Origin: Myxococcales bacterium
GTDB lineage: Bacteria; Myxococcota_A; Polyangia; Polyangiales; Polyangiaceae
Reading direction: 5' to 3'
DNA: 64,000 nucleotides
Assembly: GCA_016720545.1 (NCBI GenBank)
Contig: JADKKK010000003.1
Location: 217,516-281,515, forward strand
The translations under genes were made by a program, and so were the position numbers. How positions within the stretch are numbered: position 1 is the stretch's first letter; each line of letters opens with the position of its first letter. Below the pieces are notes generated by a model. The model ran no database searches, was not told where the DNA came from, and saw only the letters and a list, made by a program, of their open reading frames with translations. This document shows, piece by piece, positions 11,666-63,843 of the stretch.

Positions 11666-11917
11666 TTTCGGCCTCGAGAGCGAGACGTTGCACACGGGGG
11701 GCCAGGAGGTGCAGGAGCGAGGCGCACGAAGCGCCTCAGGAAAGGTGTGGGATCTCGGCAGAATAGCAGGCCGGGCGCGGGGCGCTCGGGATGAGCGCTC
11801 GCGCGGGCGTGGGTCGCGCGCCCACGAGGCCCCCCGTGGATCGTCGGCGAGCCATGGGGGCCAGCCCCAACATGCCGAGCGGGTATGGCCCCCAGGGAGG
11901 CTTCGACCACCCCACCC

Positions 11918-13423
11918 TCATGGGGGCGGTGGGGCGGGAGGCGGCGGCGCGCCAGACGCCGGCGCGCCGGGCGGGGCCGCCCCAGCGGCGAGGCGCTCGC
12001 GGAGGATGCGAGCGGCGTACGCGTACGAGGGGTTCTGCGGCTGCTCGCGCGCGAGCTGCTCGTAGGCCTCCGCCGCCTTGGCCAGATCGCCCTTGTGGAC
12101 CTCGTCGACCGCGGTGCGCTCGAGTGTGGGCCCCTTGCCCGCGTCTTTCCCCGCGGCCGCCGACGGATCGGACGTCCCCGAGGGGGCGGGGCCCGGCGTG
12201 GGGTTGGGCGCGTTGGGCGCAGTGCCCGGGGCGGTCGGAGTGGGCGTCGGCGGCGTGCTCGGCGGCGTGGGCGTGGGGACGAGGCCCATCGCCGAGGGCA
12301 CCGGCGCCGGATCGCCCGCCAGCGCACCGGCCTCGGCGCCCGCGTCGGACCGGGCGGCCTTTTTGGGCGGCGGCGGTGGATCGTCGGTGAAGAGGATGAG
12401 CGCCGCCGCGACGAGCGCCAGCGGCAGGATGATGTAGGTGAGCTTGCGGACGGGCGACGCGGTCTTGAAGTCGGCGATCGCCTTCTTCAGCGGGTCGGTC
12501 TCGGCGGGCGGCGCCGCCTGCGGGAGCTGTCCGACGCCAGAGGCCGAGAATCCTTGAGGGAAAAGTTGCTCCTGCCCGGCCGAGAACGAGCCGCCAGCCT
12601 GCATCGGCTGCATGGGGGGGAAGCCACTGCTTCCCCCGCTCATCGACGCGTTCGGGAAGCCGCCGCTCATGCCGGGCATCCCGCCGGGCATTCCCCCCTG
12701 CCCTTGCATCGGGAAGCCGCCGCTCGCGCCGGGCCCTTGCATCGGGAAGCCGCCGCTCGCGCCGGGCCCTTGCATCGGGAAACCGCCGCTCATGCCTGCG
12801 CTGGGCATCCCGGGCGCCTGCATGGGGAAGCCGCCCCCGGCGGGCGGGAAGGCGCCGGTGGGCGGGCGGGTGCCGCTGCGCGACATGGAGAGATCCAGGG
12901 GCGCGACCCGCGTGGACTCGCCGTCGTCGGCCTGGCTCGAGAACGCCCCGGGCTGGAACGGCCGCGACGGCGCGTCGGTGGGCACCGCCGGAGCGCCCCC
13001 CGAGATTTGCGCGGTGCGGGCAGCGGGTGGCTGGCCAGCCGCAGGAATAGGGGCTGCGGTCGGCGCCTTCGGGGGCGCAGCGGGCGCAGGCGGCGGACCG
13101 GCCGCGGCCCGCTCTTCGGCGCGGTACTCCAAGCGCGCGCCACCGATGTCGATGCTGCAAGGCGGGCGCACCTCGGTCCACTCGGTGCCGATGGGGAAGC
13201 CGTCGACACACGCCGCGTTGTCGGGGTCGGTGGTCTGAAGGAAGAGCGCGTAGCCGTCAAAGTACGCGTACGCGTGCACGTCGAGCATGCGCGCGCCGTC
13301 GATCCGCCACTGGCCGCGGCGGCCGATGCTCAGCGTGGGGGACTCCTTCCCGGAGGTGAGCGGGATGAACCCGGGCTCCCCGATTCCGTTCACGATCTCG
13401 ATGACGTGGGTGGAGGCCGCCAT
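11918..13423 (-). CDS. FHA-like domain protein with Pro/Gly-rich repeats, TM segment and C-terminal TPR-like region
   Basis: The N-terminus is FHA-like ('TLSIGRRGQWRIDGARMLDVHAYAYFDGYALFLQ'). It is followed by three 33-nt in-frame tandem repeats encoding 'GPGASGGFPMQ', then a TM segment ('LTYIILPLALVAAALILF'). The ATG at 13423 is in frame. Confidence 0.55.
   Translation of the reverse strand: MAASTHVIEIVNGIGEPGFIPLTSGKESPTLSIGRRGQWRIDGARMLDVHAYAYFDGYALFLQTTDPDNAACVDGFPIGTEWTEVRPPCSIDIGGARLEYRAEERAAAGPPPAPAAPPKAPTAAPIPAAGQPPAARTAQISGGAPAVPTDAPSRPFQPGAFSSQADDGESTRVAPLDLSMSRSGTRPPTGAFPPAGGGFPMQAPGMPSAGMSGGFPMQGPGASGGFPMQGPGASGGFPMQGQGGMPGGMPGMSGGFPNASMSGGSSGFPPMQPMQAGGSFSAGQEQLFPQGFSASGVGQLPQAAPPAETDPLKKAIADFKTASPVRKLTYIILPLALVAAALILFTDDPPPPPKKAARSDAGAEAGALAGDPAPVPSAMGLVPTPTPPSTPPTPTPTAPGTAPNAPNPTPGPAPSGTSDPSAAAGKDAGKGPTLERTAVDEVHKGDLAKAAEAYEQLAREQPQNPSYAYAARILRERLAAGAAPPGAPASGAPPPPAPPPP
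12700..12798 (-). repeat. 33-bp in-frame tandem repeat x3 (encodes GPGASGGFPMQ)
   Basis: The unit 'ccttgcatcgggaagccgccgctcgcgccgggc' is repeated directly. Confidence 0.7.
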
Positions 13424-13485
13424 GAAGGGACAACACGCGGGGGGGGAAGGAGGTTGGAGGATCGACCGACCGAGAACCGGGGACG

Positions 13486-14601
13486 TCAGCGCCGACGCTG
13501 CGCGGCTTCGTAGACCGAGGCCGGCAGGTCGAGCCCGTGCTCGTGCAGTTGCTCGATGCAACGAGGGATGATCCCGGTCGGGCCGATCGTGCTCTCGATC
13601 TTTCCGGACGGGTCGAACCCTTGGTACTCGCGCACGAAGATGTCCTGCATCTGATACGAGCTCGTGGTCGCATCATACCCCAAGACCTCGGTCACGTGCG
13701 TGATCTTGCGGCTGCCGTCCTGGAGGCGCGACACCTGAACGATGAGGTTCACGGCCGAGGCGATCTGCACGCGGAGCGCGTGGAGCGGCATGTCGACGTC
13801 GCTCATCATGCCCATGGTCTCGAGGCGGGTGATGGTGTCGCGCGGGTACGTGGCGTGGAGCGTGGACATACAGCCGCCGTGGCCCGAGGTCATGGCTTGC
13901 ACGAGGTCGAGCGCCTCGCCGCCGCGGATCTCGCCCACGACGATGCGGTCGGGGCGGAGGCGGAGGGTCGCGCGGAACAGGTCGCGGATCTTCACCTCGC
14001 CCTTGCCCTTTGGATCGGGCGGGCGCGCTTCGAGCTGGCACACGTGCACGCGCTGGAGCTGCAGCTCGCGGGAGTCTTCGATGATGACGACGCGCTCTTC
14101 GTCGGGGATGAAGGACGAGAGCGCGTTCAACATCGAGGTCTTGCCAGACCCCGTGCCGCCGGCGATGAGCACGTTGAGCTTCGACGCGACGAACACCTTC
14201 AGCGCCTCGGCGACCTCGTCGGTCATGGCGCCGAAGTTGATGAGGCGCTGGACGGTGAGGGTCTCCTTGAAGAACCGGCGGATCGACACGCAGGGGCCGT
14301 CGGGGGCCGCCGGCGGAAGCACGGCCTCGATACGCGATCCGTCGGGCAGGCGCCCCTCGAGGATCGGTCGCTCTTCGTCGATGTGCTTGCCGACGTACTG
14401 CGCGGCGTTGCGGAGCGCCGCGGTGAGGTGCTCGACGCTCTCGAACTTCGAGTCGGAGAGGTGGAGCGTCCCCTTCTTCTCGAAGTAGATCTGCCCCGGC
14501 CCGTTGATCATGATGTCGCTGACGCCCGGATCCTCGAGGAGGGGCCGGATGGGGCCGAAGAACTGGAGGAGCGTCTCTTCGAATATTTCCTTCGGAATCA
14601 T
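13486..14601 (-). CDS. CpaF/TadA-family secretion ATPase (short form, no FHA)
   Basis: It has a Walker A ('[10 protein letters not shown]') and the conserved CpaF/VirB11 core ('RIVVGEIRGGEALDLVQAMTSGHGGCMSTLHA'). The ATG at 14601 overlaps the stop of the upstream TPR lipoprotein (ATGA). Confidence 0.8.
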   Translation of the reverse strand: MIPKEIFEETLLQFFGPIRPLLEDPGVSDIMINGPGQIYFEKKGTLHLSDSKFESVEHLTAALRNAAQYVGKHIDEERPILEGRLPDGSRIEAVLPPAAPDGPCVSIRRFFKETLTVQRLINFGAMTDEVAEALKVFVASKLNVLIAGGTGSGKTSMLNALSSFIPDEERVVIIEDSRELQLQRVHVCQLEARPPDPKGKGEVKIRDLFRATLRLRPDRIVVGEIRGGEALDLVQAMTSGHGGCMSTLHATYPRDTITRLETMGMMSDVDMPLHALRVQIASAVNLIVQVSRLQDGSRKITHVTEVLGYDATTSSYQMQDIFVREYQGFDPSGKIESTIGPTGIIPRCIEQLHEHGLDLPASVYEAAQRRR

Positions 14602-15230
14602 GGCGTATCGCCCTCGACGCGGTGAAGGATGGAGGCCCGCGCTTCCTCGACGTGAGAGCCCTTCGGGTCGAGCCGGAGGTACTCGCGAAAATGAGCGTCC
14701 GCGGCCACGAGATCTTGCTCCGCGTCCCGCAGCAGCACGGCGAGCGCGTAGTGCGCTTGGGCGTCGTTGGGGCGCGCCGCGAGCACGCGCTCGAACTCGA
14801 CGCGGGCGAGCTTGGGCTCCTCGGTCGCCGAGTACAGCGACGCGAGCACGAGGCGCACGCGCACGTCGTTCGGGTGTTTCACGAGGTGCTCGCGCGCGTA
14901 CTTCGCCGCGAGCCGAAAGCGCGACTCCTTGATGCACACCTCGAGCAGCAGCGGCATGATCTGCCGAGGGTCGCCGCCTTGGGCGAGCGCGTCGGCCAGG
15001 TACTCCTCCGCGCGCACGTAGTCGCCCACCGCCGCGAAGCCGCGCCCACGCGAGATGAGCTTGTCGACGGTGTGCTCGCGGCTGTACGTGGCCACGTCTG
15101 CCTTGATGGTCTCCGACACGGAGGGCGGCCCGCACGCAGCGGCACCGAGCGCCACGAGCGTCGCCGTCAGCGCGCGCGCGTGTATTATGCACGAGTTTAG
15201 GAGGGCGGCTCCCCGGCGCGCGGCGCTCAC
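14598..15230 (-). CDS. TPR-repeat lipoprotein
   Basis: It has a lipobox ('LVALGAAAC') and TPR repeats. The proposed GTG start at 15230 overlaps the TGA of the upstream FHA gene (GTGA). An alternative ATG at 15290 would overlap that gene by 64 nt. Confidence 0.5.
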   Translation of the reverse strand: MSAARRGAALLNSCIIHARALTATLVALGAAACGPPSVSETIKADVATYSREHTVDKLISRGRGFAAVGDYVRAEEYLADALAQGGDPRQIMPLLLEVCIKESRFRLAAKYAREHLVKHPNDVRVRLVLASLYSATEEPKLARVEFERVLAARPNDAQAHYALAVLLRDAEQDLVAADAHFREYLRLDPKGSHVEEARASILHRVEGDTP

Positions 15231-51490: not shown

Positions 51491-54400
51491 CTACCGACGC
51501 GCGCGGAGGACGCGCACCTCGATGGAGGCGCCGCGGTGGTCGGGGTTCAGCGCGAGGACGTCCTCGAACGCCGCGAGGGCGTCCATCTGCCGGCCGAGCG
51601 CCTTCAGGAGCTTGCCTCGGTAGAAGTGCGCGGTCTCACACACGGGGTCGTCGGCGATGATGAGATCGAACTCGCCCACGAACTCGAGCGCCTCGTTCGG
51701 CCGGCTCTGCGAGCGCACCCAGGTGAGCAGCGCGCGGTACTCCGCTTGAGACGGATCCCCCTCGACGGCCTTCTCGGCGAGCACCTCCGCCGACGGGATG
51801 TCGCCGCGCTTCAACGCGGCCTCCGCGAGGCGGAAGTCGGTGACGGCACCGAGCGCGCGCTCCGCGTCGGCGACGCCCTCTTCCTCGATCTCGACCTCGC
51901 CGAGGTCGACCGGGGCGGACTGCTCGGGCCGCGAGGCGAAGGCCGTCGGGCTCGCGGCGACCTGAGGCCGCGGCGCGGGCCGGGGAGGCGCGAAGACGGG
52001 GCGAGCCGCGATCGCGGTCTTCTCGTCGTCGTCGTCGTCGGGTGGCGGCTCCGCGTGCCGGAGGTTCTCACGCGACGGCGGCGGTGGCGGCGGTGGCGGC
52101 GGTGCCGGTGCCTCGGCGGCCGCTGGGCGGATGGGGCGGATCATCGGGCGGCGCCCGCCGGCCGGCAGAGGCGCTCGCACGGCGGGCTGCGCAGGCTGCG
52201 CAGACTGGACAGACTGGACAGACTGGACAGGGGCCGCAGGCGGCGGCGGTGGCGCGGGCGGCGCGGGCTGCACACGCGGGGCGACGGGAGGCGCGGCATG
52301 GACCGGAGGCGCGACCGGCGCGGCGACCGGTGCCGGCGCAGCGTTCGCGGCGCGGGCGGCCATCGGGCCCTTCTTCTGACCCTTGAACGCGAACTGGCGC
52401 GTCACCGCGAAGGTGTAGACAAGAGAGTTGACCACTTCCTCGTCGGTCACCCCTCGATCGATGAGCTCCGCGTACGTGAGGCTCTCCGTGCGCAGCAGGG
52501 CCATGACGGCCTCCTCTTCGCCCGTGAGCACCAGCGACTCGAACGCGCACTCCTCGAAGAAGACGAGCGGGTGCTTCGAGATACGGAGCAGCGTGGCGCG
52601 GATGCGGTCGCGATCGCGCCACTGGCGAGTGGCGGTGAGGATCGCGTTGAGCGCGCCCTGCAGCTCGATGTTCGCAGCGCCCCAGTCGGCGAGCGAGTTG
52701 ACGTTGTAGAAGTACGAGTACGTCGACTCGACGGGCAGGTTCGTGAGGGTCGCGAGGTTCTCGAGCAGCTGCAGCTCGAGGCCGAGACCCACCACCGACT
52801 CGGGCATGCCGACGTTCGCGACGAGGTGCTGCCCGAAGAGGAGCCCAGCCTGCTTCGCCTCGGCCGACAGCGCGTCGAGGCCGGCGCCGTCGAGCTGCTC
52901 GAGCCGCGCGAGCGCCTCGCCCAGCTTGATCCCCCCGTAGGCCAGCCGCACCTTCGCGGGTACGCCAGCGACGAAATAGACCGCGTGCTCGAACTCGCCC
53001 TCCATGAACACCACGGTGCCCGTGAGCGCGTGGTCGAGCATGTACACGAGCACGTGGACCAGCGGGGTCGTCGACAGCACGCCCTCGGCCGTGGGGGTGA
53101 CTCCCTCGGGGCGCATGCGAGCCGCGGGCGCAGGGCGCGGCGGGCGCGCGGCGGGCGCGGCGGGCGCCCGCGCGAAGTCCTGCCCTACGCGCGACGGCGT
53201 AGTGCCGATCGAGGGGCTCGAGCGCTTCAAGTCGCCGCTGCTCGGGCGCATGTTGGCGCTCGAGGTCTTCATGTTGGCGCTCGAGGCCTTCTGGCTGCTC
53301 GGGCTCGACCAGCCGGAGTAGTCCGGTGGAGCGACGGGCGGAGGCGCCGGCGAGACGTCGACGCCGAGCGCGATCGGCGGCCGGTTGGCGCGCGGATCGG
53401 GGAGCGCACTCCGCGCCTCCGCGGGCGGCGGCTCCGGCGCGGGCGCCTGCTGCGGCGGTGTCCAGGCCGCGACCGGGGGTGGCGCTGGCGGCGGCGGCGG
53501 CTCTGGCGGGGGATCCGAGCCGCCTCCTGCGTTGGCCTCTTCCTGGGGGAAGCCCTCGAGGCCCTTCTTCCACCCGTCGATGCTCACCACGCGGTTGATT
53601 TGCCGAGGCGGCTCGCGGGGGTTCGGCTTGCCGAGGTCGATCTCGGCGCCGTTCGCGATCACGCCGCCGCGCGCGTCCATGACGATCTTGAGCTTCGGCT
53701 TGTCGAGCGAGCCCGCGGCGCCACGCGTGACCTCGGCCACTTCGCCTGTCGAGAGCTGCACCACCGTGCCGATGGGGATGAGCCCGAGCGCGGCGACCGC
53801 CATTCGCAGCACGGTCTTGTCGGACGGATCGGTGAGCTCGGCGTCGAGGCTGGCTACCGCGAAGTCGGTGGTGGGCGGCGGGAGGCCGGGCTCCGGCGTG
53901 AGGAGGTCGTTGTAGCGCCGCGCGATGCGCATGATGCGCGCGTGCACCGTCGGCTGGCGCTGCCCGCGGTAGAGCGGCCCAAGCCACTGCTGCCTGCGCA
54001 TCCACTGGGCCTCGTAGGCGACGACGGTGCGCGTGATGGTGGGCTCGTTGACGCGACCGAGGGCCGTAAGGACCGCCGCGGTGCCGGCGGCGAGGCGGTC
54101 TTCCTGGTCCTCCGACAGGGTGGTGGTCGTCATCATCGCGGCGAACTCGCCGGCGTTGGCCTTGCTGAGGGCGAACGCGCGCGGCCTCGCGACGTCATGC
54201 ATCATGGCGGCCATCGCCACCTGGGCGAGCACCACGCGATCGGACGTGACCTCACGCGCGATCGCCACGGCGAGGATCGCCGAGTTGACCGCGCGGCCCG
54301 CTTCGTCGTGGTTCGCGTTACGCACCTCGGTGACCCCCAGGAACGCCGGCGTGGTGCCGTCGGAGAGGTCGACGAGGCTCTGCGCGACGCGTTTGATGCG

Positions 54401-55000
54401 CCGCGGGAGCATGTAGTGACTGGACTCCAAGTCCTCGAAAAACCTACGCAAAACGACGACAGCCGACGCATAGGTGCGGCGAATTCGCTGCTCTTGATCG
54501 AGCTTCTCGACGTCGATGCCGCGCATGCGCGCCGCGTCAGCCACCTGGCGCAAGCGGATCTTCGCCGTGGGCGAGCGGAAGTTGCCTCGCTCGCTGCGCA
54601 TGCACCGCGAGATCTCCTCGGCGAAGGCGAGCATCTCTTCGCGCGAGATGTCGCGCTGCATGATGAGCTCGGAGCCGCCGAGCCACTCGAAGATCTCGCC
54701 GAGCTCCGTGGCGAGCTGGTAGGTCCCGCGCGAGCCTTTCAGGAGCTGCCCGCCGACGAACGCGGCGCGGTGCGCGAAGAGGATGTTGAGGTTGGTCCCC
54801 GATCGCAGGCAGTAGTCGGCGACGATGTTGACGGTCTGATCGAGCTGCTGGAGGAACGCCTGGTTCGTCAGGTTGTGCACCTGCGCCAGCTTCGCGAGCT
54901 TGTAGACCGCCATGAGGGCGTTCGAGCCCTGGTCGCGCGCGTGCTCACGACGGACGAGCTCGCCCGCGTCGTTCGTCACGATATCGAGCCGCATCGTCAT
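51491..55000 (-). CDS. Large multidomain regulatory protein: HD-like domain + Pro-rich linker + DUF4388-like domain + C-terminal TPR
   Basis: The HD-like region reads 'AAMMHDVARP'. Low-complexity Pro/Ala linkers follow, including a 9-bp repeat giving (VQS)n. The DUF4388-like region reads 'PLVHVLVYMLDHALTGTVVFMEGEFEHAVYFVAGVP'. The ATG at 55000 overlaps the upstream kinase stop (ATGA). Confidence 0.65.
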   Translation of the reverse strand: MTMRLDIVTNDAGELVRREHARDQGSNALMAVYKLAKLAQVHNLTNQAFLQQLDQTVNIVADYCLRSGTNLNILFAHRAAFVGGQLLKGSRGTYQLATELGEIFEWLGGSELIMQRDISREEMLAFAEEISRCMRSERGNFRSPTAKIRLRQVADAARMRGIDVEKLDQEQRIRRTYASAVVVLRRFFEDLESSHYMLPRRIKRVAQSLVDLSDGTTPAFLGVTEVRNANHDEAGRAVNSAILAVAIAREVTSDRVVLAQVAMAAMMHDVARPRAFALSKANAGEFAAMMTTTTLSEDQEDRLAAGTAAVLTALGRVNEPTITRTVVAYEAQWMRRQQWLGPLYRGQRQPTVHARIMRIARRYNDLLTPEPGLPPPTTDFAVASLDAELTDPSDKTVLRMAVAALGLIPIGTVVQLSTGEVAEVTRGAAGSLDKPKLKIVMDARGGVIANGAEIDLGKPNPREPPRQINRVVSIDGWKKGLEGFPQEEANAGGGSDPPPEPPPPPAPPPVAAWTPPQQAPAPEPPPAEARSALPDPRANRPPIALGVDVSPAPPPVAPPDYSGWSSPSSQKASSANMKTSSANMRPSSGDLKRSSPSIGTTPSRVGQDFARAPAAPAARPPRPAPAARMRPEGVTPTAEGVLSTTPLVHVLVYMLDHALTGTVVFMEGEFEHAVYFVAGVPAKVRLAYGGIKLGEALARLEQLDGAGLDALSAEAKQAGLLFGQHLVANVGMPESVVGLGLELQLLENLATLTNLPVESTYSYFYNVNSLADWGAANIELQGALNAILTATRQWRDRDRIRATLLRISKHPLVFFEECAFESLVLTGEEEAVMALLRTESLTYAELIDRGVTDEEVVNSLVYTFAVTRQFAFKGQKKGPMAARAANAAPAPVAAPVAPPVHAAPPVAPRVQPAPPAPPPPPAAPVQSVQSVQSAQPAQPAVRAPLPAGGRRPMIRPIRPAAAEAPAPPPPPPPPPSRENLRHAEPPPDDDDDEKTAIAARPVFAPPRPAPRPQVAASPTAFASRPEQSAPVDLGEVEIEEEGVADAERALGAVTDFRLAEAALKRGDIPSAEVLAEKAVEGDPSQAEYRALLTWVRSQSRPNEALEFVGEFDLIIADDPVCETAHFYRGKLLKALGRQMDALAAFEDVLALNPDHRGASIEVRVLRARR

Positions 55001-57807
55001 GACGGCGAGCCCTCCACGCGCGCTGCGATCTTGGAGAGCGCCGTGGTGGCGGCCTGGCGGGTCTCCTCGGCCGTGCCCCACCGCGACTGAAACACCTCGT
55101 TGAGCGCGGCGATCGCGCCGCGTGAGCGCGCGTACTCGCCTAGCACCTCGCACGCGATCGCGCGGGTCGACTCGCGCGACTCGGACGCGAGCATGCCGCC
55201 CTTCCGAGCCAGGTCGAGCAGGAGCGGTTCGCCACGCTCGGGGCCGAGCAGGTAGAGCGCTCGCAGGACCTCTCGGCGCTCGTCGGCGCCGAGCTCGAAG
55301 AAGTTCTTCGCCTGGGTCATGCGCTGCACGGGCAGCCACGCGCCACGCAAGCCGTAGCGAATGATGGCGCGGAGCGACGCCATTCGCACGAGCGCCGACG
55401 GGTTCTCGAGCATGCGAGAGACCTCGTTCACCGCCTGGTCGGGCGAGCCCATCATCAGGATGCGCGCCTCGACGCGCACGTTGACGTCGTCGGTCTGGGC
55501 GAGGCTGGAGAGCGCCTGCCGAGCGGCGGGGGTGCCCGTGCGCCCGAGCAGCGCCACGATGGCGGCGGCGAGGTCGCTGTCGGCGCCGAGCGCGACCTGC
55601 GCGACCTCGGCCTCGCGGCCCGTGAGGTGCCGCTCGAGGAAGCCGATGAGCAGGGCGCGCACGGGCGGCGGCGACGGCTCGCGGAGCGCGTTTTGTACGC
55701 CCGTGAACTCGTTCGCAGGGAGGAGCGCCATGATGGGGGCGAACGCCTCGACGCGCGCCGGATCTTCCCGGAGGGTGCGCACGATGAGATCGAGGGTCTC
55801 TCCGCCAAAGAGCGCGCTCGTGAGGACGCTCACGAGCTTCCGGTGGCTCTCCGCGCTCGGCACCCGCGGCGCGAGGCGCTCGCAGACGGCCGAGTAGAGC
55901 TGGACGAGGACGTCCACCCTGCCGGCGACCACGAGGTCCTGCCCCGACTTGCGGAGCGAGGCGAGGACGAGGGGCGCGTCGCGATTGGCCGCGGCGTCGA
56001 GGAAGCCGTCGACGAGGGCGTCGACGAAGCGCTCGGCCCACTGATCGCGGCCGACCTCGAACTGGGCGAGCATGGCGCCCTTCACCACGTCGTCGAGGCC
56101 GAGGACGCTGGCCACCTTCGGGGCCGTGAGCGCGGTCTTGTCCGTGGAGAGCGCCATCGTGCGCGTCTCGAGGCGGCTGATGTTCTCGCGGTTGGCCGAC
56201 TCGGCCATGGCCTCGAGGCGATCGGACTCTTCGAAGAAGGCCTCGCGCGCGCCGGCGTCGCCTTCGGCGAAGGCCTCGGCGCACTCGTAGGTGATGCTCG
56301 GGAGCGCGCGCTCCCAGAACGCCGCCGCGAGGTCGTCCTCGGGGGGCAGGTCCCGCGCGGGGTCGAGCATGAAGAGCGTGAGCGTCTCCCTCAGCTCGTC
56401 GATGGAGATGCCCGGACCTAGCCGCATGCTGCGGATCCCGCACGCGAAGAGGTTGTAGGGGATGGAGTCGTAGGGGGCTTGGGGCTCCCACACGTTGTGG
56501 CCCAACGTGACGAACGAGTACGGGCGCACCGAGAACTGCAGGAGCTCGGGGTCGCGGCCGAGCGCCTCGCGGAAGGCGTCGTGGGCCGTGCGCAGCGAGC
56601 GATCGGTCGCGGGGTGCGCCCAACCGAACTGCCTCACGCTCGGGAGCACCCGGTCGAGGTGACGCAGGACGTCGCGGGCCCCTTGAACCCGCGGATCGTT
56701 CTCTGGCACCTCGGGGGCGGGGGGCGCAGCCTGGACGGGCGGCTTGGGGACCGCGCGCGCGCCCGACGCGGCGTCGGTGTGCGACCCCGAGGGGAGCTGG
56801 GCGTTCGCCTTTGGCGAGGACCCGCTGCTCGAGACCTCCTGAGGTGACGGGGCGGCCGCTTGAGGCTGCGCGACCGGCGCGGGCGCCGGCGCGGGCGCTG
56901 CCCGTCGACCACCGTACGAGAGCGGCTCGCCGCCCGCGTTCTTGAGCGCCTCGAGCACGGCCGCCTGCATCTCGCGCGCATCGGCGAAGCGGTTGCGTCG
57001 GTCCCACTGGAGCGACTTGTCCGTGAGCGCGATGACGTCGATGGGCAGATTCGGCGCAAGACGGGCCACGGAGGGCACCGGCTTCGTGGCCGCCATCACG
57101 AGCGCCTCTTGCTCGGTGCGGCCGTTGTTGATGCGGTGCCCCGTCACGAGCGCGTGGAGCATGGCGCCCACGGAGAAGATGTCGGCGCGGCCGTCGAGCT
57201 GATCGACGAGCCCCATCGCCTGCTCCGGGGACATGTAGGCCGGCGTGCCGAGCGCGGTGCCGGTCGCGGTGCGTTCGCTCGTGGCGTCGCGCATCTGGGC
57301 GACGCCGAAGTCGAGCACCTTGATGTCACCGGTGTCGGTGATGAAGATGTTCGCGGGCTTGAGGTCGCGGTGGATGACGTTGATGGCGTGGCAGGCGACG
57401 AGACAGTCGAGCACGCGCTCGCAGATTTGAAGGACGCGTACGACGGGCATCGTGCGGCCCGACTTCTTCCACGCGTCGCGGACCGTCTCGCCCTCGAGGA
57501 GCTCCATCACGAGGAACGGCTCGCCGTTCTCGGTCTCGTCGTCGTCCTGGACCTGAACCGTCGCCGGATGCCCGACCTTGTTCGAGACGTACGCCTCGCG
57601 GAGAAAGCGCTCGACCACCGTGCGCTCTCGCGCGAAGTCGGCGTGGAGGATCTTCAACGCGGCGCGCGTGCTGTTGCGGTGGACGGCCGCGTACACGGCG
57701 GCCATTCCTCCGACTCCAAGGAGGGACTCGATGGTCCACTTGCCTTTGATGACCTGCCCAACCCTGGCTGCCGGGTTGGCCGCGTCGGTCTGGTTCTTCG
57801 CCGCCAC
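54997..57807 (-). CDS. Ser/Thr protein kinase (936 aa) with long C-terminal HEAT/ARM-like region
   Basis: The kinase motifs are 'LGVGGMAAVYAA', 'HRDLKPANIFI', 'DFGVAQ' and 'YMSPEQ'. The C-terminal half is helical repeats. Confidence 0.85.
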   Translation of the reverse strand: MAAKNQTDAANPAARVGQVIKGKWTIESLLGVGGMAAVYAAVHRNSTRAALKILHADFARERTVVERFLREAYVSNKVGHPATVQVQDDDETENGEPFLVMELLEGETVRDAWKKSGRTMPVVRVLQICERVLDCLVACHAINVIHRDLKPANIFITDTGDIKVLDFGVAQMRDATSERTATGTALGTPAYMSPEQAMGLVDQLDGRADIFSVGAMLHALVTGHRINNGRTEQEALVMAATKPVPSVARLAPNLPIDVIALTDKSLQWDRRNRFADAREMQAAVLEALKNAGGEPLSYGGRRAAPAPAPAPVAQPQAAAPSPQEVSSSGSSPKANAQLPSGSHTDAASGARAVPKPPVQAAPPAPEVPENDPRVQGARDVLRHLDRVLPSVRQFGWAHPATDRSLRTAHDAFREALGRDPELLQFSVRPYSFVTLGHNVWEPQAPYDSIPYNLFACGIRSMRLGPGISIDELRETLTLFMLDPARDLPPEDDLAAAFWERALPSITYECAEAFAEGDAGAREAFFEESDRLEAMAESANRENISRLETRTMALSTDKTALTAPKVASVLGLDDVVKGAMLAQFEVGRDQWAERFVDALVDGFLDAAANRDAPLVLASLRKSGQDLVVAGRVDVLVQLYSAVCERLAPRVPSAESHRKLVSVLTSALFGGETLDLIVRTLREDPARVEAFAPIMALLPANEFTGVQNALREPSPPPVRALLIGFLERHLTGREAEVAQVALGADSDLAAAIVALLGRTGTPAARQALSSLAQTDDVNVRVEARILMMGSPDQAVNEVSRMLENPSALVRMASLRAIIRYGLRGAWLPVQRMTQAKNFFELGADERREVLRALYLLGPERGEPLLLDLARKGGMLASESRESTRAIACEVLGEYARSRGAIAALNEVFQSRWGTAEETRQAATTALSKIAARVEGSPS

Positions 57808-57954
57808 GTTCTATTCCACCGGAGGTCGGGCCACACTAGAAGACGGCGGGAGCGCCGGACTCAGGCGTCGACGAGCTACAGAATAGCGAGCCTCGCGCTA
57901 CGTTCCCAGGAAGTTTTGGCATTTCGCTCGGTCGCCGCGCCGTCAGCCGCGGGC

Positions 57955-57980
57955 ATCCTGGCATGCGACGTGCGAGCGCT
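57955..57980 (+). promoter_or_regulatory. Candidate sigma-54-type promoter upstream of the copZ-like gene
   Basis: 'cTGGCATgcgacgtGCg' has GG-N10-GC spacing. It lies about 35 nt upstream of the copZ-like ATG, which is preceded by a GAGAGGTAGGA ribosome-binding site. Confidence 0.25.
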
Positions 57981-58007
57981 CGCTCACCACCCGAGAGGTA
58001 GGACACC

Positions 58008-58241
58008 ATGCCGACGATCGTGCTGAATATCGAGGGGATGACGTGCGGGGGCTGCGTGAAGGCGGTGCAAAATGTGCTGGGCCGGCTAGAAGGTGCCGAG
58101 GTCGTCGAAGTGAGCGTCGGCCGCGCAGTACTGCGTTTCGGTTCAGCGTGGGGAGGTGATTCGAGCCCGGCGGTCGCGGCGATCGCCAAGGCAGGCTTCA
58201 CCGCGCGCGTCGCGGAACCTGCGGGGGACGCTACGCGCTGA
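58008..58241 (+). CDS. copZ: Heavy-metal-associated (HMA) copper-chaperone-like protein
   Basis: It carries the 'GMTCGGC' metal-binding motif, is 77 aa long and has a good ribosome-binding site. Confidence 0.75.
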   Translation: MPTIVLNIEGMTCGGCVKAVQNVLGRLEGAEVVEVSVGRAVLRFGSAWGGDSSPAVAAIAKAGFTARVAEPAGDATR

Positions 58242-60696
58242 GGCGACGCACCGCGAGCAGGCCGAGCACGGCCGCGGCGAGGCCCGCGAGCGGCGCGAGC
58301 GGCGTGGGGATAACGCCGAACGCGAGCCCGAGCACGGCCACGACCGTGGGCGCTACGCCGAACACGAGGCCACGCCGCACTCGCTCGCGCAGGCTCCGGG
58401 CGAGGCTCAGGGCGAGCGCCGCGGCGCGCACGTCGTCGGTGGCGAGGAGCACGGCGAAGTCACCGGGGAGGCCGATCGAGCCGAGCGCGATCGACACGTC
58501 GGCCGCGGCAAGCGCGGCGTCGTCGGCCACCGCGCGCCCCACCACCGCCACGACGTGGCCTCCCTCGGCGAGGGCTCGCACCTCGGCGGCGCGGTCCTGC
58601 GGGAGCACCTCGGGCCTCACGTGGTCGATGTCGAGCGCCCGCGCGAGGGTATCGCAGGCCTCGCGCGTCTCGCCGCTCACGAGCACGGGCTCGACGCGAG
58701 CCTCGAGCAATCGCTGGATCGCGGCGCGCGCCCCGGGTCGCAGCGCGTCTTGGAGGGCGACGAGACCGGCGAGCTTGCCCGAGAGCGCGACGAGCACGAC
58801 GCTCGCCCCCTGGGCCTCGAGCTCGCGGACGCGCTCCTCCGAGGCGGCGACGCTCACGCGCTCCTTCAACAGGTGGGCGCGGCTCCCGACGATGAGCGGC
58901 TCGCCGTTGGCGAGGAGCGCCGTCACGCCGAGGCCCTCGTGTGTGAGGACGCTGCGAAGCGACTCGGCCACCACGCCCTCGCCCGCCGCGGCCCCTAGGA
59001 GCGCCTTGCCGGCGGGCGTGCCACGCGAGCCCTCGGCGCCCGCGGCGAGCGCCAAGATGCGCTTTCGATCGTAGACGCGCGCGCCGAGCGGATCGATCGC
59101 GATGACCTCGGGCTCGCCCATGAGGACGGTGCCGCGGGAGCACAGGACGGCCACGTCGCTCATGCCCGCGAGCTCCAGCGCGCGGGCGTCGCGGAAGGCG
59201 ATGCCCGCGGTCAGGGCGTCCTGCTGGGTCGCCGCCGTGGCGAGCGTGAGCGTGGCGACCACTCCGACCACCGAGAGGGATGTCCCCGCCGCGAAGGCGG
59301 CCGACAGTACGCCGAGCCAGGGCGCGTTGCTCGCGAACTCGGCCGCGCCGACGAGCGCGCACACGATGGGCAGCGCGCGGGGTGTCCACACACGCACGAG
59401 GCCGAAGAGGCCGGCGGTCTCGCGCCCCGCGAACCGTCGCGTCGCGAGGCGCTCTCGCCCCACGGCGCTGGCCTCCACGACGAGCTCGCCCTCGAGCACG
59501 GTGAGGCCCGCCAGGACCGCGTCGCCGGCGGCCTTGGTGGCCTCAGTGCCCGCGAACGCCCATGGGATCACCGTGGCCCGGCCGCGAACCACGACCCCGT
59601 CCACGCGCAGAACCTCGCCAGCCGCGACGGCCACGCGATCGCCGAGGCGGAGGTCGGAGGAAGGGAGCGTCACCGTGGTCGATCCGACGACCCGCCGCGC
59701 ACCTCCGCCCAAGTGGGCGGCGAGTTCCTCTGTATATCCAAGCACTTCCGCTTCTGCCCTGAGCGCCGCGAGCTGCGACAACACGAGCGCCGCGACCGCG
59801 AGCCCGGCCGCGGAGACCACGCCTCCCGCCTGGTCGACGCGGAGCGCGGCCGCCACGACCGCGACCGCGACCAGGCCGAGCGTGGGCGCGCCCGCGATCC
59901 ATGGCGAGGGCTCGCCAAGGACCCGCGGCTTTCGCACGAACCACGGCACCAGCAGCGCCGCGCCGAGCAGCACGAGGCCCGCGCGGAGCCGCGGCTCGGG
60001 GACGCCCGCCAGGGCCAAGGCGAACGCCCCCGCGCCCGCCACCACCGCGGCGAGAGGTAGCCAGAGTCGCGCGAAGGGCGCGCGGGTCACCTGCCCGGAC
60101 GCGGGCGACGGTTCGTCGAGCGACCGCTGGGTGTGCGGCGCCGGCAGCGACGCGGGCTCCTCCTCCGCCCACCGGGCGTAGTCTACGGAGGGCGCGAGGT
60201 ACGGCTCGTCGACGGCGCTCTGCGACGCGGGCGCCGGCGGCGGCGCGGAGGGCGCGAGCTCCTCGAGCGGCGGCGTGGAGGCCCACGAGCGGAGGGTGGG
60301 GTGGGAGGGCGGGTCGGTGTCGCGCCGGGCCCCGTCGTCGGCGGGGTCATCGACATCGATCGAGACCTCGGGCGCTGCCGGCGTGCGCGGGCGTGTGCGC
60401 GGCCCCGACTCGACGGCCTGGTCGCGCGGCGACGGCGCCACGCCCGGCGGCCTCGCCGACGGCGCCACGCCCGGCGGCCTCGCCGAGCGAGTGAGCGACG
60501 CCACCCGCGGGGGCTCCGCGGTGAGGTCGAACGACCGCTCCGCCGACGGCGAGCTCTCGACGTACGCAGCCTTGCAGCTCGCGTCGCAGAAGTAGCGGAA
60601 GCGCCCGTCGAGGATCGCCACGTGCCCCGCGCGCAGCGGATCGGTCGGCCTCCCACAGCCGAGGCACTGCACGGGGTCTTGTGCGGCTTGACTCAT
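58231..60696 (-). CDS. P1B-type (heavy-metal) ATPase-like membrane protein with degenerate catalytic motifs and N-terminal Cys-rich zinc-ribbon
   Basis: The topology and length fit a P1B ATPase, with 8 TM helices. However DKTGT is replaced by 'CSRGT', TGES by 'GTEAT', GDGxND by 'GRAVADD', and no CPC is seen in the TM6 region. The N-terminus has 'CLGCGRP...FCDASC'. It overlaps the copZ-like gene convergently by 11 bp. Confidence 0.65.
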   Translation of the reverse strand: MSQAAQDPVQCLGCGRPTDPLRAGHVAILDGRFRYFCDASCKAAYVESSPSAERSFDLTAEPPRVASLTRSARPPGVAPSARPPGVAPSPRDQAVESGPRTRPRTPAAPEVSIDVDDPADDGARRDTDPPSHPTLRSWASTPPLEELAPSAPPPAPASQSAVDEPYLAPSVDYARWAEEEPASLPAPHTQRSLDEPSPASGQVTRAPFARLWLPLAAVVAGAGAFALALAGVPEPRLRAGLVLLGAALLVPWFVRKPRVLGEPSPWIAGAPTLGLVAVAVVAAALRVDQAGGVVSAAGLAVAALVLSQLAALRAEAEVLGYTEELAAHLGGGARRVVGSTTVTLPSSDLRLGDRVAVAAGEVLRVDGVVVRGRATVIPWAFAGTEATKAAGDAVLAGLTVLEGELVVEASAVGRERLATRRFAGRETAGLFGLVRVWTPRALPIVCALVGAAEFASNAPWLGVLSAAFAAGTSLSVVGVVATLTLATAATQQDALTAGIAFRDARALELAGMSDVAVLCSRGTVLMGEPEVIAIDPLGARVYDRKRILALAAGAEGSRGTPAGKALLGAAAGEGVVAESLRSVLTHEGLGVTALLANGEPLIVGSRAHLLKERVSVAASEERVRELEAQGASVVLVALSGKLAGLVALQDALRPGARAAIQRLLEARVEPVLVSGETREACDTLARALDIDHVRPEVLPQDRAAEVRALAEGGHVVAVVGRAVADDAALAAADVSIALGSIGLPGDFAVLLATDDVRAAALALSLARSLRERVRRGLVFGVAPTVVAVLGLAFGVIPTPLAPLAGLAAAVLGLLAVRRLSA

Positions 60697-60754
60697 GGGT
60701 CTGCGAGTCGCCTTGTGCCGCGCCCTCGCGCGGAACGCAAGCGACGCTGGCCGA

Positions 60755-61969
60755 TCACCCGCCGCGCTCGCTCGCCATGGCTCGGAGCGTGGCCTTCAGC
60801 AGGCCGACGGCGTCGGTCAGCTGGGCCTCTGTCACCACGAGAGGCGGCACGAAGCGTATGACGCGTGCGCCCGCGCCCGTGAGCAGCAGCCCAGCGACAG
60901 CGGCACGAGCCACGACGTCGCGTGCGACCCACCCTGGCGCCAGCACCAGGCCTCGCAGGAGCCCCACGCCGCGCTCCGCCTCGCACACGCTCGGGAGCTC
61001 GGCGACGAGACCGCGCAGCCCCGCCGCGAGGTGCTCACCCTTGGCGCGGGCACCCTCCACGAGCCCCTCCGTCGCGACGGCCGAAAGCACGGCGCGCGCC
61101 GCGGCGCAGCCAAGCGGGTTGCCCGCATAGGTGGAGCCGTGCGTGCCCGGGGGCAGCGCCTCGGCGAGGGCCTCCCGCGTGAGGATCGCGCCTATCGGGA
61201 AGCCCCCGCCGAGCCCCTTCGCGAGCGCCACGGCGTCCGGCGCGACGCCGGCCCGCTGGAAGCCGAACCACGCGCCCGTGCGACCCACCCCCGTCTGCAC
61301 CTCGTCGAACAGCAGCAGCGCGCCGCGCGCGTCGCAGGCCGCGCGGAGGCCCGCGAGGAAGCCCTCCGGCGCAGGCAGCACCCCGCCCTCGCCTTGAATG
61401 GGCTCGACCACGACCGCGGCGAACTCGTCGGTCAGGGCCGCGCGCACCGCTTCGAGGTCGCCGTAGGGCACGTGCGTGACACCGGCGACCTCTCCGAAGC
61501 CTTCCCGATACTTGGGCGTCCCCGTGAGGCTGAGGGCGCCCATGGTGCGACCGTGAAACGCGTTGTCGAACGCGAGAAAACGCGTGCGCGAGAGCTGGCC
61601 TCTGCCGAAGAAATGATGGCGCGCGAGCTTGAACAGCGCCTCGAGCGCCTCCGCGCCCGAGTTGCAGAACATGGCCCGATCGAAGCCCGACAGACGGCAG
61701 AGCTCGTCGGCCAGCAGCACGTTCTCTTCGTTGTAGAACCAGTTCGACACGTGCCCGAGCTTCGCGACCTGCGCCGATACGGCGGCCACATACGCGGGGT
61801 GGGCGTGCCCGAGCGTGCACACAGCGACCCCGGCCGCCATGTCCAGGTAGCGCGCGCCCTCCACGTCCCACACCTCGCAGCCCTTGCCGCGCGAGAGCAC
61901 GAACGGCGCGGGCCGATAGTTCGGGTAGAGGCGCTGGCTGGCGAGGGCGAGGAGCTCGGCGTTGTTCAT
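60755..61969 (-). CDS. argD: Class-III PLP aminotransferase, acetylornithine aminotransferase-like
   Basis: It carries 'LLFDEVQTGVGRTGAWFGFQ' and 'GSTYAGNPLGCAAA', and is 404 aa. Confidence 0.8.
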   Translation of the reverse strand: MNNAELLALASQRLYPNYRPAPFVLSRGKGCEVWDVEGARYLDMAAGVAVCTLGHAHPAYVAAVSAQVAKLGHVSNWFYNEENVLLADELCRLSGFDRAMFCNSGAEALEALFKLARHHFFGRGQLSRTRFLAFDNAFHGRTMGALSLTGTPKYREGFGEVAGVTHVPYGDLEAVRAALTDEFAAVVVEPIQGEGGVLPAPEGFLAGLRAACDARGALLLFDEVQTGVGRTGAWFGFQRAGVAPDAVALAKGLGGGFPIGAILTREALAEALPPGTHGSTYAGNPLGCAAARAVLSAVATEGLVEGARAKGEHLAAGLRGLVAELPSVCEAERGVGLLRGLVLAPGWVARDVVARAAVAGLLLTGAGARVIRFVPPLVVTEAQLTDAVGLLKATLRAMASERGG

Positions 61970-62030
61970 GGCGGTGACGCGCAGCTTAGCAGCCCCGAGT
62001 AGCGAGGCGATCTCCCTCCCCCCTCGAGGG

Positions 62031-63729
62031 TCAGCGGAGACGCGCCACGACCGAGCCCGTCGCGGGCAGCTCGAGGGTGATCTTCGCCCCCTCGCGGCGC
62101 GCGATCCCCGCGCCGAGCGCCCGCTCGGTGAGCGTGCCCTCCACCTCGGCCACGCCGGACTGAGCCGCCTCGGTGAGGTTCTCGGCGACCAGCCACGCCT
62201 CCGAGGCGTCGGAGCGCACGAAGGCGAACACGCTCGGGTTCCCCACGTCGACGAGCTTCATGTCGCCCGCGCCGAACACCCGCCGGCCGCGCCGCAGCGC
62301 GAGGAGCTGCTTGTAATGTACATACATCGACCCGGGCTCGGCTCGCTCGGCCTCGACGTTCGTCACGTCGGCGTCGGGGGCGAGGGCGAGCCAGGGCTTC
62401 CCCGTGGAGAAGCCGTGGTTCTGCCCGCCGCGCGTCCAGGGCATGGGGGTGCGCGCCGAGTCGCGATTGTCGACCACCTTCTCGGCGCCGGGGCGGAGGC
62501 CGAGCTCCTCGCCGTAATAGATGTAGGGAGTGCCCCGCGCGAGCAGCTGGATCTCCACCGCGCGCCGGTGCCGCCACTCCTTCCCCTGCGCCACCGCGTA
62601 CGCGCGCCCGACGTCGTGCGAGCCGATGACGAGGGCGCTTTGGGCACCGGCCGGGAACGTGGCGGCCGACTCGAACGCGCGGTCGATCTGGGCGCGGCTC
62701 TCCGACTGGAAGGCGAGCGGCCACAGGTATCCATAGTCGAACAGGAAGGCCATCTGGAACATGTCGGAGCCAGAGCCGAAGTAGGCCTTCGGGCTCTCGA
62801 ACAGCACCGACTCGGCGACCATCGCGCGGTCCGGGAACGTGTCGAGCACGCCGCGGAGCTTCCGTAGGTACTCGCCGGTCTTGGGCTGGAGCGCGCCGCA
62901 ATCCTTCGCGACGGGCGACTCGTAGAGCAATCCGATCACGTCGCAGCGGAAGCCATCGACGCCCTTCTCGAGCCACCTCCGCGCGACGCCGAGGGTGTCG
63001 GAGACCACGGCCGGATCGTCGAAGTTGAGGTCGGGCTGACCCAGGGTAAAACCTATGAAAATAATACTGATTTCGGGTCGGATCGAGCGTCCACGGCGTG
63101 GTCCCGAACTGCGCGTTGAAGGGGCCACACGCGTTCGTCGGCGAGGAGGCCGTGTCCGACCACACGTACGTGTTCGCGCGGGGGCCGGTCTTGTCCTTGC
63201 GCGACTCTTGGAACCAGGGGTGCGCCTCCGAGGTGTGGTTGAACACGAGGTCGAGGAACACGCGCATCTTGCGGTTGTGGGCTTCGTCCAGCAGCTCCTT
63301 CAGGTCGGCGTCGGTGCCGTACTCCGGCGCGATCGCGTCGTAGTCGGCGACGTCGTAGCCCGAGTCCTTGAAGGGGCTCTTGAAGATCGGCATGAGCCAC
63401 AGAGCATCGACCCCGAGGCGCTGCAGATCGTCGAGCCGCGAGGTGAGGCCCTTCAGGTCGCCGATGCCGTCGCCGTTCGAGTCCTGGAACGAGCGGACCA
63501 TCACCTCGTAGAACACCGCGTGGCGGTACCAGTCGGGCCCCGTGAGGAGCGCCGCGGCCCTGGCCTGCTGCTCCGCGGTGGGCTCGGTGGGCGCCGCGGG
63601 CGCGGGCGCGGGCGCGGGGGCAGGCGTCGTGGCCGCGCTGCATGCGGCCGCGAGGAGCCCGAGGGCCGCCGCGAGGCGCGCGAGCGCGGTCAGGGGTCGC
63701 GTGGTTCGGCGAGGTACGGGCGCGCTCAT
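62031..63729 (-). pseudogene. GH13 alpha-amylase-family lipoprotein (trehalose-synthase/oligo-1,6-glucosidase-like) with a +1 frameshift
   Basis: The N-terminal part, up to '...NQYYFHRFYPG', runs from ATG 63729 and has a lipobox ('LLAAACS'). The remainder, '...GQPDLNFDDPAVV...GVDGFRCDV...YYGEELG', is in another frame. Deleting one G near 63040-63046 joins the two frames to give 'FYPGQPDLNFDDP'. Confidence 0.7.
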
Positions 63730-63843
63730 GAGCCCATGGGAGGGGAGAACTCGGCGGACGGCAAGCGGCCCGATCCTGCGGCGCCTCGCGGCCATGGCTG
63801 AGCGGACCGAACCGCGGGCAAGGCGCGATGCGAGCGCCGCTGC

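Follow-up and report, generated by a model that had tools for sequence, protein, structure and literature searches.

In a 64,000-nucleotide stretch of a Polyangiaceae genome (hereafter the window, to whose positions all coordinates refer), a minus-strand gene encodes an intact, membrane-embedded homologue of the P1B-type ATPases, with A, P and N domains, in which all of the catalytic signatures have been replaced. The replacements define a sharply bounded family that is spread through the order Polyangiales, and purifying selection on the gene is strong, most of all in the cytoplasmic headpiece. Judged by its residues, the 821-aa protein can very probably neither run the Post-Albers phospho-enzyme cycle nor occlude a metal ion in the membrane. 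It would therefore be a pseudoenzyme, whose selected function would lie in the headpiece and in an N-terminal four-cysteine (Cys4) finger. The explanation preferred as a whole, a conserved pseudo-pump acting as a metal-linked regulator or scaffold, is given a probability of about 0.6. The gene and the pump-like parts of its product are listed here, with the ratio of nonsynonymous to synonymous substitution rates (dN/dS), positions in amino acids (aa) and the per-residue confidence (pLDDT) of an AlphaFold (AF2) model.

58231..60696, minus strand: coding sequence of the pseudo-P1B-ATPase, 821 aa, dN/dS 0.065
59707..60081, minus strand: transmembrane helices MA, MB, M1 and M2, aa 206-330, pLDDT about 80-90 (AF2)
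59422..59706, minus strand: A (actuator) domain, aa 331-425, fold core kept, Pfam E1-E2_ATPase
59212..59421, minus strand: transmembrane helices M3-M4, aa 426-495
58387..59211, minus strand: P and N domains, aa 496-770, best-conserved part of the protein, Pfam Hydrolase
58234..58386, minus strand: transmembrane helices M5-M6, aa 771-821

An earlier note on this DNA had likened the topology and length of the protein to those of copper or zinc pumps, and this likeness is upheld by Pfam matches, homology to CopA, the eight transmembrane helices of the AF2 model and structural comparison with Foldseek. The matches to E1-E2_ATPase (PF00122, aa 333-420, 35.5 bits) and Hydrolase (PF00702, aa 522-733, 44.4 bits) both pass the gathering scores, as does the generic P-type model TIGR01494 its cutoff (93 bits against 62). 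The heavy-metal subfamily model TIGR01525 (ATPase-IB_hvy) is not passed (189 bits against 346), and the protein lies far under the cutoffs of the CopA and ZntA equivalog models. Its best solved relatives by sequence are Archaeoglobus fulgidus CopA (E=1.6e-33), followed by Legionella pneumophila CopA and ZntA (E-values from 1e-33 to 1e-16), and the same three proteins are the top Foldseek matches at about 1e-22. The AF2 model was built from an input alignment of 21 family sequences and has a mean pLDDT of 66, with values of about 80-90 in the A and N domains and below 50 in parts of the P domain (514-527, 667-673 and 687-753) and in the N-terminal linker. Its helices span residues 208-229, 235-255, 265-284, 290-329, 429-455, 460-496, 754-793 and 798-816. 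The protein thus modelled is the same as GenBank HQY60018.1 ('HAD-IC family P-type ATPase', from a Polyangiaceae metagenome-assembled genome), is found identical in independent assemblies and is encoded in surroundings of about 66-80% G+C.

The domain order is the one known from CopA (A. fulgidus 3J08/7R0G, L. pneumophila 3RFU/4BBJ) and ZntA (4UMV/4UMW), namely an N-terminal metal-binding module, MA-MB-M1-M2, A, M3-M4, P/N and M5-M6, and the cores of the A domain and of the Rossmann-type P domain are likewise kept. However, in contrast to these pumps, the 821-aa protein is devoid of the phosphorylatable Asp, TGE, CPC/YN/MxxSS, the Lys of LPxxK and GDGxND. P-type ATPases are defined by their phospho-aspartate, and at the position of this residue the window protein has a Cys. 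The residues found in place of the canonical motifs are listed below.

59128..59142, minus strand: CSRGT, replacing DKTGT, aa 519-523
59542..59553, minus strand: AGTE in the TGE loop, which reads FAGTEA, aa 382-385
59269..59277, minus strand: LSV, replacing CPC, aa 474-476
59014..59025, minus strand: RGTP, replacing SEHP, aa 558-561
58669..58677, minus strand: SGE, replacing TGD, aa 674-676
58591..58605, minus strand: LPQDR, replacing LPxxK, aa 698-702
58522..58539, minus strand: GRAVAD, replacing GDGxND, aa 720-725

The motifs were placed by a HMMER alignment to A. fulgidus CopA and by MAFFT alignments with nine and with four canonical P1B pumps. These three independent alignments agree on every motif, which rules out that the motifs are present in shifted positions. 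The substitutions already read from the letters in the earlier note (CSRGT for DKTGT, a degenerate TGES loop, GRAVAD(D) for GDGxND and no CPC) were accordingly borne out by alignment to CopA/ZntA-type pumps as true losses, and the replacements of SEHP, TGD and LPxxK come in addition to them. In the A-domain loop T-G-E is absent in every register, the register of the alignment there being uncertain by one or two residues; the loop is variable across the family and its conserved part is the P-W just before it. In the membrane, the M4 helix of the AF2 model still breaks at 474-475, the site of CPC. The YN and MxxSS ligands of copper pumps are absent from M5 and M6, where P797 and P802 are the sole conserved residues, and the family alignment contains no conserved polar or thiol residue in any transmembrane helix. 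The losses thus extend from the phosphorylation site (Asp) and the ligands of Mg2+ (Asp of GDGxND) and phosphate (Lys of LPxxK) to the TGE dephosphorylation loop and the intramembrane ligands. The N domain retains E555, G588, G590 and G604; the His of its HP motif, kept in most members of the family, is replaced in the clade of the window. The HP motif was lost independently in the window clade (RGTP, FGTP, NGSP) and in a Labilithrix-like subclade, where HP became DA, which suggests that nucleotide binding may be dispensable in some lineages.

Seven residues past the start of SG(E/D), in SGETREAC, stands a near-invariant Cys, C681 (58654..58656, minus strand), which is Ala in canonical pumps and is retained even in the clade with Ser at the nucleophile position. 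A new metal site formed by Cys519, Cys681 and His721 was considered and is not claimed: Cys519 has given way to Ser throughout one clade in which C681 is kept, and Arg and His are equally frequent at position 721.

The substitutions are shared by a family with a clear boundary. A word-indexed search returned about 21 relatives at E<=1e-67, all carrying the substitutions, before a jump to canonical pumps at about 1e-34, and when one genome per GTDB species was scanned, 184 species-representative genomes proved to encode the family. All of the 184 that carry a name belong to Polyangiales. The best 80 come without exception from myxobacteria of the Polyangiales type, namely Polyangiaceae, Labilithrix (with L. 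luteola DSM 27648), Polyangium and Sorangium, and include seven complete Sorangium chromosomes, Sorangium cellulosum So ce56 among them. At 83 loci, of which 81 are informative at the nucleophile position and two are gapped there, this position is occupied by Cys (64 loci), Ser (16) or Asn (one) and never by Asp; the LPxxK position is always Arg and GDGxND always reads G(H/R/...)xxxD. A profile search of 1.84 billion representatives of clusters at 50% identity gave at least 150 proteins at 347 bits or more. The motif states of divergent members were read from the alignment; a plain regular expression left 51 of the 150 unmatched. Among 147 informative representatives the nucleophile is Cys in 122, Ser in 13 and Asp in none, with N, A, L, T, Q, G, V and W also occurring in some members; the third motif position is Arg in 118, and the position of the LPxxK Lys is Arg in 126 and Lys in a single one. 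Loss of the Asp, TGE, CPC, the LPxxK Lys and GDGxND is thus common to the 81 loci and the 147 representatives, and the substitutes (C/S)xRGT, SG(E/D), LPxxR and G(H/R)xxxD are conserved family-wide. With a profile built from the most divergent members, dead proteins (including those of Sandaracinaceae) score at least 483 bits and canonical pumps at most 345; DKTGT, TGE, CPx and GDGxND are absent above this gap and present below it.

Selection on the gene was estimated against a 95%-identical relative (locus L004; dS = 0.40). The overall dN/dS of 0.065 is made up of values of 0.029 in the P and N domains, 0.077 in the A domain and 0.06-0.13 in the transmembrane blocks; the adjoining Ser/Thr kinase gene has 0.024 in the same comparison. 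Conservation across the family is distributed similarly: 39 of the 125 columns in the second half of the P domain are at least 95% conserved, as against one to three in each of the transmembrane blocks, which are the least conserved parts and conserve only boundary Arg and Gly/Pro residues. The N-terminal finger is also well conserved. Purifying selection and conservation centred on the headpiece indicate a maintained pseudoenzyme, and the family-wide loss of motifs, together with the low dN/dS, lends strong support to the proposal of the earlier note that this pseudo-ATPase has no phospho-enzyme cycle.

The sequences are public, yet the pseudoenzyme family appears to have gone unrecognised. 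Members are named 'HAD-IC family P-type ATPase', 'HAD family hydrolase' or 'Cu+-exporting ATPase' in databases, and the So ce56 protein (A9GHV0) 'P-type Zn(2+) transporter'. The dead site is not reflected in any of these names, so that hundreds of entries would be mis-annotated and the counts of metal-resistance genes for Sorangium and its relatives inflated. A census published in 2014 found DKTGT in 99.77% of 9,634 P-type ATPases and treated the 22 variants as point mutants or errors (PMC3896382). The classifier of that census relied on DKTGT, TGD, TGE and GDG as predictors, so that a family lacking all four would have escaped it, and Sorangium is mentioned neither in the text nor in the supplement (PMC3896382). 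No description of a dead P-type ATPase family or of these accessions was found in the full-text literature including a 2023 review on unanswered questions about P-type ATPases, most subscription journals lying outside the search.

The closest active relatives are P1B pumps bearing YHS, TRASH or HMBD modules (P0023-P0025, P0028 and P0031; PF04945, PF24273 and PF19335), at E-values of about 1e-33. They resemble the family in carrying a Cys-rich TRASH/YHS-type module at the N-terminus in place of an HMA domain, and plausibly represent the ancestral type. Descent from YHS/TRASH-bearing pumps is suggested because the nearest canonical relatives have such N-termini. However, these pumps retain DKTGT, TGE, CPC and GDGxND, whereas the dead proteins have a finger of a divergent subtype, which has an invariant DPLRAG of its own and falls under the Pfam thresholds. 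The N-terminal region is composed as follows.

60556..60672, minus strand: Cys4 TRASH/zf-FCS-like finger, aa 9-47, with C11, C14, C37 and C41
60082..60555, minus strand: disordered tether rich in Pro, Ala and Ser, aa 48-205, pLDDT 31-47

The finger, described in the earlier note as a zinc-ribbon, does contain the four cysteines of CLGC...FCDASC with the spacing C-x2-C-x22-C-x3-C, which agrees with the pattern C-x2-C-x19-22-C-x3-C and the F-C-x-x-x-C signature. Its type is a different one, and from its sequence it is classed as a divergent TRASH/zf-FCS/eL24-type Cys4 finger. All four Cys, as well as DPLRAG and F-x-Y-F-C, are invariant in a 24-sequence alignment, and AF2 models the segment as a beta-hairpin and a helix (pLDDT 65-77). 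Matches to Pfam models of this kind, although under the thresholds, recur consistently in 18-19 of the 24 members. The best Pfam match of the window finger is TRASH_HVO_1752_C, and the best E-value of any single member is 6.4e-6, to DUF7576. Compared with the PDB, the family profile of the finger has its best match in the zinc-finger ribosomal protein eL24 (E=0.011). Judged by residues, the finger is the only candidate metal site remaining in the protein. The tether that follows it is hypervariable in length, with a mean frequency of the commonest residue of 0.38, and holds two conserved short motifs, TA(E/D)PPxV and EEPxSLPAP/TLRSP.

Four neighbouring genes in the window have a bearing on the possible function.

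60755..61969, minus strand: argD (acetylornithine transaminase), 58 bp upstream of the pseudo-ATPase gene on the same strand, TIGR00707 437.8 bits against a cutoff of 410
58008..58241, plus strand: CopZ-like HMA-domain gene, 77 aa, GMTCGGC, convergent with the pseudo-ATPase gene
54997..57807, minus strand: Ser/Thr protein kinase, 936 aa, Pkinase with a HEAT-like C-terminus
51491..55000, minus strand: Pro-rich protein of about 1170 aa, overlapping the kinase gene by 4 bp, faint tetratricopeptide repeat (TPR) matches, no NCBIfam match

Upstream, argD is the same-strand neighbour at almost all loci with upstream sequence; it is missing at L075 and L079 and lies 7.6 kb away at L005. In a Polyangium-like clade argF sits between argD and the family gene, and the spacing can be as tight as a 4-bp overlap with argD (L086) or an argD-argF-gene arrangement with a 10-bp gap (L085). 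A wider block precedes the gene in distant members (L003 1-7974; L085 148-4194; L086 1467-6004), with YbeY, HU (Bac_DNA_binding), a PUA-domain S-adenosylmethionine methyltransferase and a Cof-type HAD hydrolase (Hydrolase_3) followed by argD. Because this YbeY-HU-HAD-argD block is conserved in distant members, the linkage to argD may reflect core-genome synteny rather than a functional operon.

Downstream, the neighbour differs by clade. A convergent HMA gene adjoins 14 of the 83 loci, including those of the window clade, and a gene for a Fur-like regulator follows 43-204 bp downstream at all 17 loci of the Sorangium/Polyangium clade (10 co-directional, seven convergent) and occurs also at the divergent locus L085; it is nearest to the iron regulator Fur and falls under the equivalog cutoffs. 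HMA or Fur-like neighbours together are found at 31 of the 83. The window's 77-aa protein matches Pfam HMA with 36.2 bits against a cutoff of 24.8 (E=8e-9) and lies under all NCBIfam CopZ equivalog cutoffs (best NF047957, 37.9 bits against 85); with a dN/dS of 0.20, its gene is real and under purifying selection. It shares GMTCxxC and the HMA domain with CopZ-type chaperones, and its place beside a P1B-type gene mirrors copZ-copA pairs. In contrast to those pairs, however, the gene is convergent and not co-transcribed, and the partner would be unable to accept metal for transport. A kinase of about 950 aa and then a protein of more than 1000 aa, on the same strand downstream, are conserved as a pair in about half of the loci, with only 18 bp between family gene and kinase at L086. 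The larger protein has faint TPR or weak PatA_N matches in relatives. In the window an ORF of 1838 aa (51491..57007, minus strand) runs across the pair as an over-extended frame, the real genes appearing to be those of the 936-aa kinase and the protein of about 1170 aa. At L013, a locus of the SARGT clade, a convergent sigma-54-dependent response regulator of the NtrC type and a GAF/HATPase histidine kinase are encoded at 11412..15064 (minus strand).

A link to metal is favoured because of the ancestry of the protein, its finger, and the HMA or Fur-like genes at 31 loci. That it is a membrane-anchored regulatory or scaffold protein connected with metal homeostasis is accordingly proposed only tentatively from these sequence features, at somewhat less than even odds. 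Several points weigh against this functional part, which draws on synteny and residue chemistry. The finger matches of the 24 members at E<=1 (TRASH_HVO_1752_C in 18, DUF7576 in 19 and zf-FCS in 10) are all under the gathering scores (20.7 bits against a cutoff of 27 for the window finger and TRASH_HVO_1752_C), and by analogy with the eL24 and zf-FCS fingers it may bind structural zinc only. The sole near-universal neighbour, argD with or without argF, has no obvious connection with metal. There is no universal downstream partner, the HMA gene being absent from 69 of the 83 loci, and the SARGT clade has neither an HMA, a Fur nor a kinase gene adjoining. A conserved pseudo-pump unrelated to metal is the main alternative, if on balance an unlikely one. 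Such a protein would be a scaffold or regulator in the membrane with a housekeeping role, expressed together with the genes of arginine biosynthesis (argD, argF), and its finger would be structural and serve protein or nucleic-acid binding. This alternative would account for the same-strand argD directly upstream at nearly all loci, down to the overlapping arrangement, for eL24, with its structural zinc finger, as the best solved match of the finger, and for the majority of loci that adjoin no metal gene. However, it leaves aside the descent from metal pumps whose YHS/TRASH N-termini are reported to bind transition metals (PMC4626032). Moreover, two different metal-homeostasis genes, HMA and Fur-like, recur immediately downstream in separate clades, and the argD linkage may be mere conservation of a core-genome block.

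Retention of the whole P1B architecture, including the MA/MB membrane platform, could also point to an accessory subunit of, or a decoy for, a canonical P1B pump or chaperone, either as a heterodimer with a CopA-type pump or as a docking site or sink for the CopZ-like protein that tunes efflux. According to work on LpCopA, MA and MB are the place where chaperones dock in canonical pumps, and the CopZ-like gene adjoining 14 loci is under purifying selection. This is nevertheless considered quite improbable, since no canonical pump lies next door at any examined locus or within the 64-kb window, the transmembrane segments are the least conserved part and most members have no adjoining chaperone gene. 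Very improbable is an active enzyme or transporter with unconventional chemistry, such as a Cys or Ser nucleophile that forms a thio- or phospho-ester intermediate. A small nucleophile is usual at the Asp position (Cys in about 80%, Ser in about 10-20%), the neighbouring G-T and S-G-(E/D) are retained, and most members keep the adenine-binding residues E, HP and GxG of the N domain. However, N, A, L, T, Q, G, V and W are tolerated as well at this position, both Mg2+-binding Asp and the TGE loop are gone, no intramembrane ligands are conserved and HP is lost in the window clade; moreover, no HAD-superfamily enzyme is known to use a Cys nucleophile. The absence of all catalytic signatures, together with a nearby alpha-amylase-family gene that looks frameshifted, might finally be taken for a decaying pseudogene or a misreading or misassembly, a reading of practically negligible probability. 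The frame is intact over 821 codons with a dN/dS of 0.065, the identical protein occurs in independent assemblies, and orthologues with conserved substitute motifs are present in 184 species genomes, including complete Sorangium chromosomes. Decay to a pseudogene is ruled out by dN/dS and by the conservation of the family and its substitutes.

If the protein is a metal-linked regulator or scaffold, the TRASH-like finger on its long flexible tether would be the element that binds or receives metal, which in the window clade may come from the adjoining CopZ-like chaperone. By docking on the locked headpiece in a metal-dependent manner, the finger could then alter what the headpiece binds, the candidate partners from synteny being the Fur-like regulator or the Ser/Thr kinase. 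The former active site has lost two acidic Mg2+ ligands and gained Arg or His (R521, R702 and H/R721), and may thus have become a basic pocket that holds an anion, a nucleotide or a phosphate group without turnover. Two further considerations count against this mechanism: the pocket is deduced from homology positions, the altered-motif parts of the P domain being modelled at pLDDT below 50, and the loss of the HP His in the window clade means that nucleotide binding, if functional, is not universal.

A more far-reaching version, speculative and rather improbable, would make this the first family of pseudoenzymes to be recognised among the P-type ATPases, a heavy-metal pump turned membrane receptor that couples metal to Ser/Thr-phosphorylation or Fur-type signalling. 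In such a receptor the basic former phosphorylation pocket (Arg521, Arg702 and His/Arg721) would bind a phosphate-bearing ligand without turning it over. This ligand would be a nucleotide or else a phospho-Ser/Thr made by the co-conserved kinase, for which the S/T-P motifs in the tether of the same protein are possible sites; the TRASH finger would report metal status.

Activity has been lost and the fold kept as a receptor or binding module in the transporter-derived sensors Snf3/Rgt2 of yeast and UhpC of Escherichia coli, as well as in mitochondrial Tim50, a HAD-fold pseudo-phosphatase. The likeness is in concept only, these protein families being unrelated to P-type ATPases. A pseudoenzyme of the kind proposed would imply that the P-type fold can be put to uses other than pumping, much as the folds of kinases, phosphatases and GTPases have been repurposed, and the cultured members S. 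cellulosum So ce56 and L. luteola DSM 27648 make the question directly testable. As regards the finger, the YHS domain of a Mycobacterium phlei adenylyl cyclase has been proposed to be a transition-metal sensor (PMC4626032). The likeness lies in a small Cys module tethered to a larger cytoplasmic domain; however, the candidate finger of the pseudo-pump is joined to a dead pump headpiece and not to an enzyme with a measurable output.

Two features of the locus that the earlier note had singled out turn out to be unremarkable.

60430..60486, minus strand: perfect 27-bp tandem duplication, 2.1 copies, Tandem Repeats Finder (TRF) score 114, encoding ARPPGVAPS twice
58231..58241, both strands: 11-bp 3'-3' overlap of the pseudo-ATPase and HMA coding sequences, both stop codons included, CTACGCGCTGA

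The repeat is present and perfect as described. However, it lies in the hypervariable tether, and a near-identical protein from another assembly (P0090) has one ARPPGVAPS copy instead of two, so that the duplication is a recent slippage event and a strain polymorphism. The overlap with the convergent gene likewise measures exactly 11 bp. Because the two genes of relatives may lie as much as 21 bp apart or overlap by up to 35 bp (a value of 123 bp at L035 is unconfirmed and probably an artefact of ORF extension), it is a matter of compact packing and not a conserved device; a functional role is not supported, given this variation and the absence of the HMA gene from most loci. No promoter-like sites were found in 57700..62100, and terminator-like sites there are at chance level.

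In seven complete Sorangium chromosomes (L037, L038, L044, L047, L052, L055 and L063) the block of argD, pseudo-ATPase and Fur-like gene lies within about 8-12 kb of coordinate 1, the fetched ranges beginning at 705-905. Upstream of argD in the window, an alpha-amylase/TreS-like gene (61966..63795, minus strand, with 62031..63128, minus strand) is apparently split over two frames. Its 609-aa ORF comprises a plausible N-terminal half followed by Arg-rich nonsense, and the C-terminal half is found in a different frame, as an ORF of 365 aa (treS_nterm, 160 bits). The arrangement resembles a frameshift near 63100, due to an assembly error or to a pseudogene; the orthologue at L001 is intact, with 550 aa.

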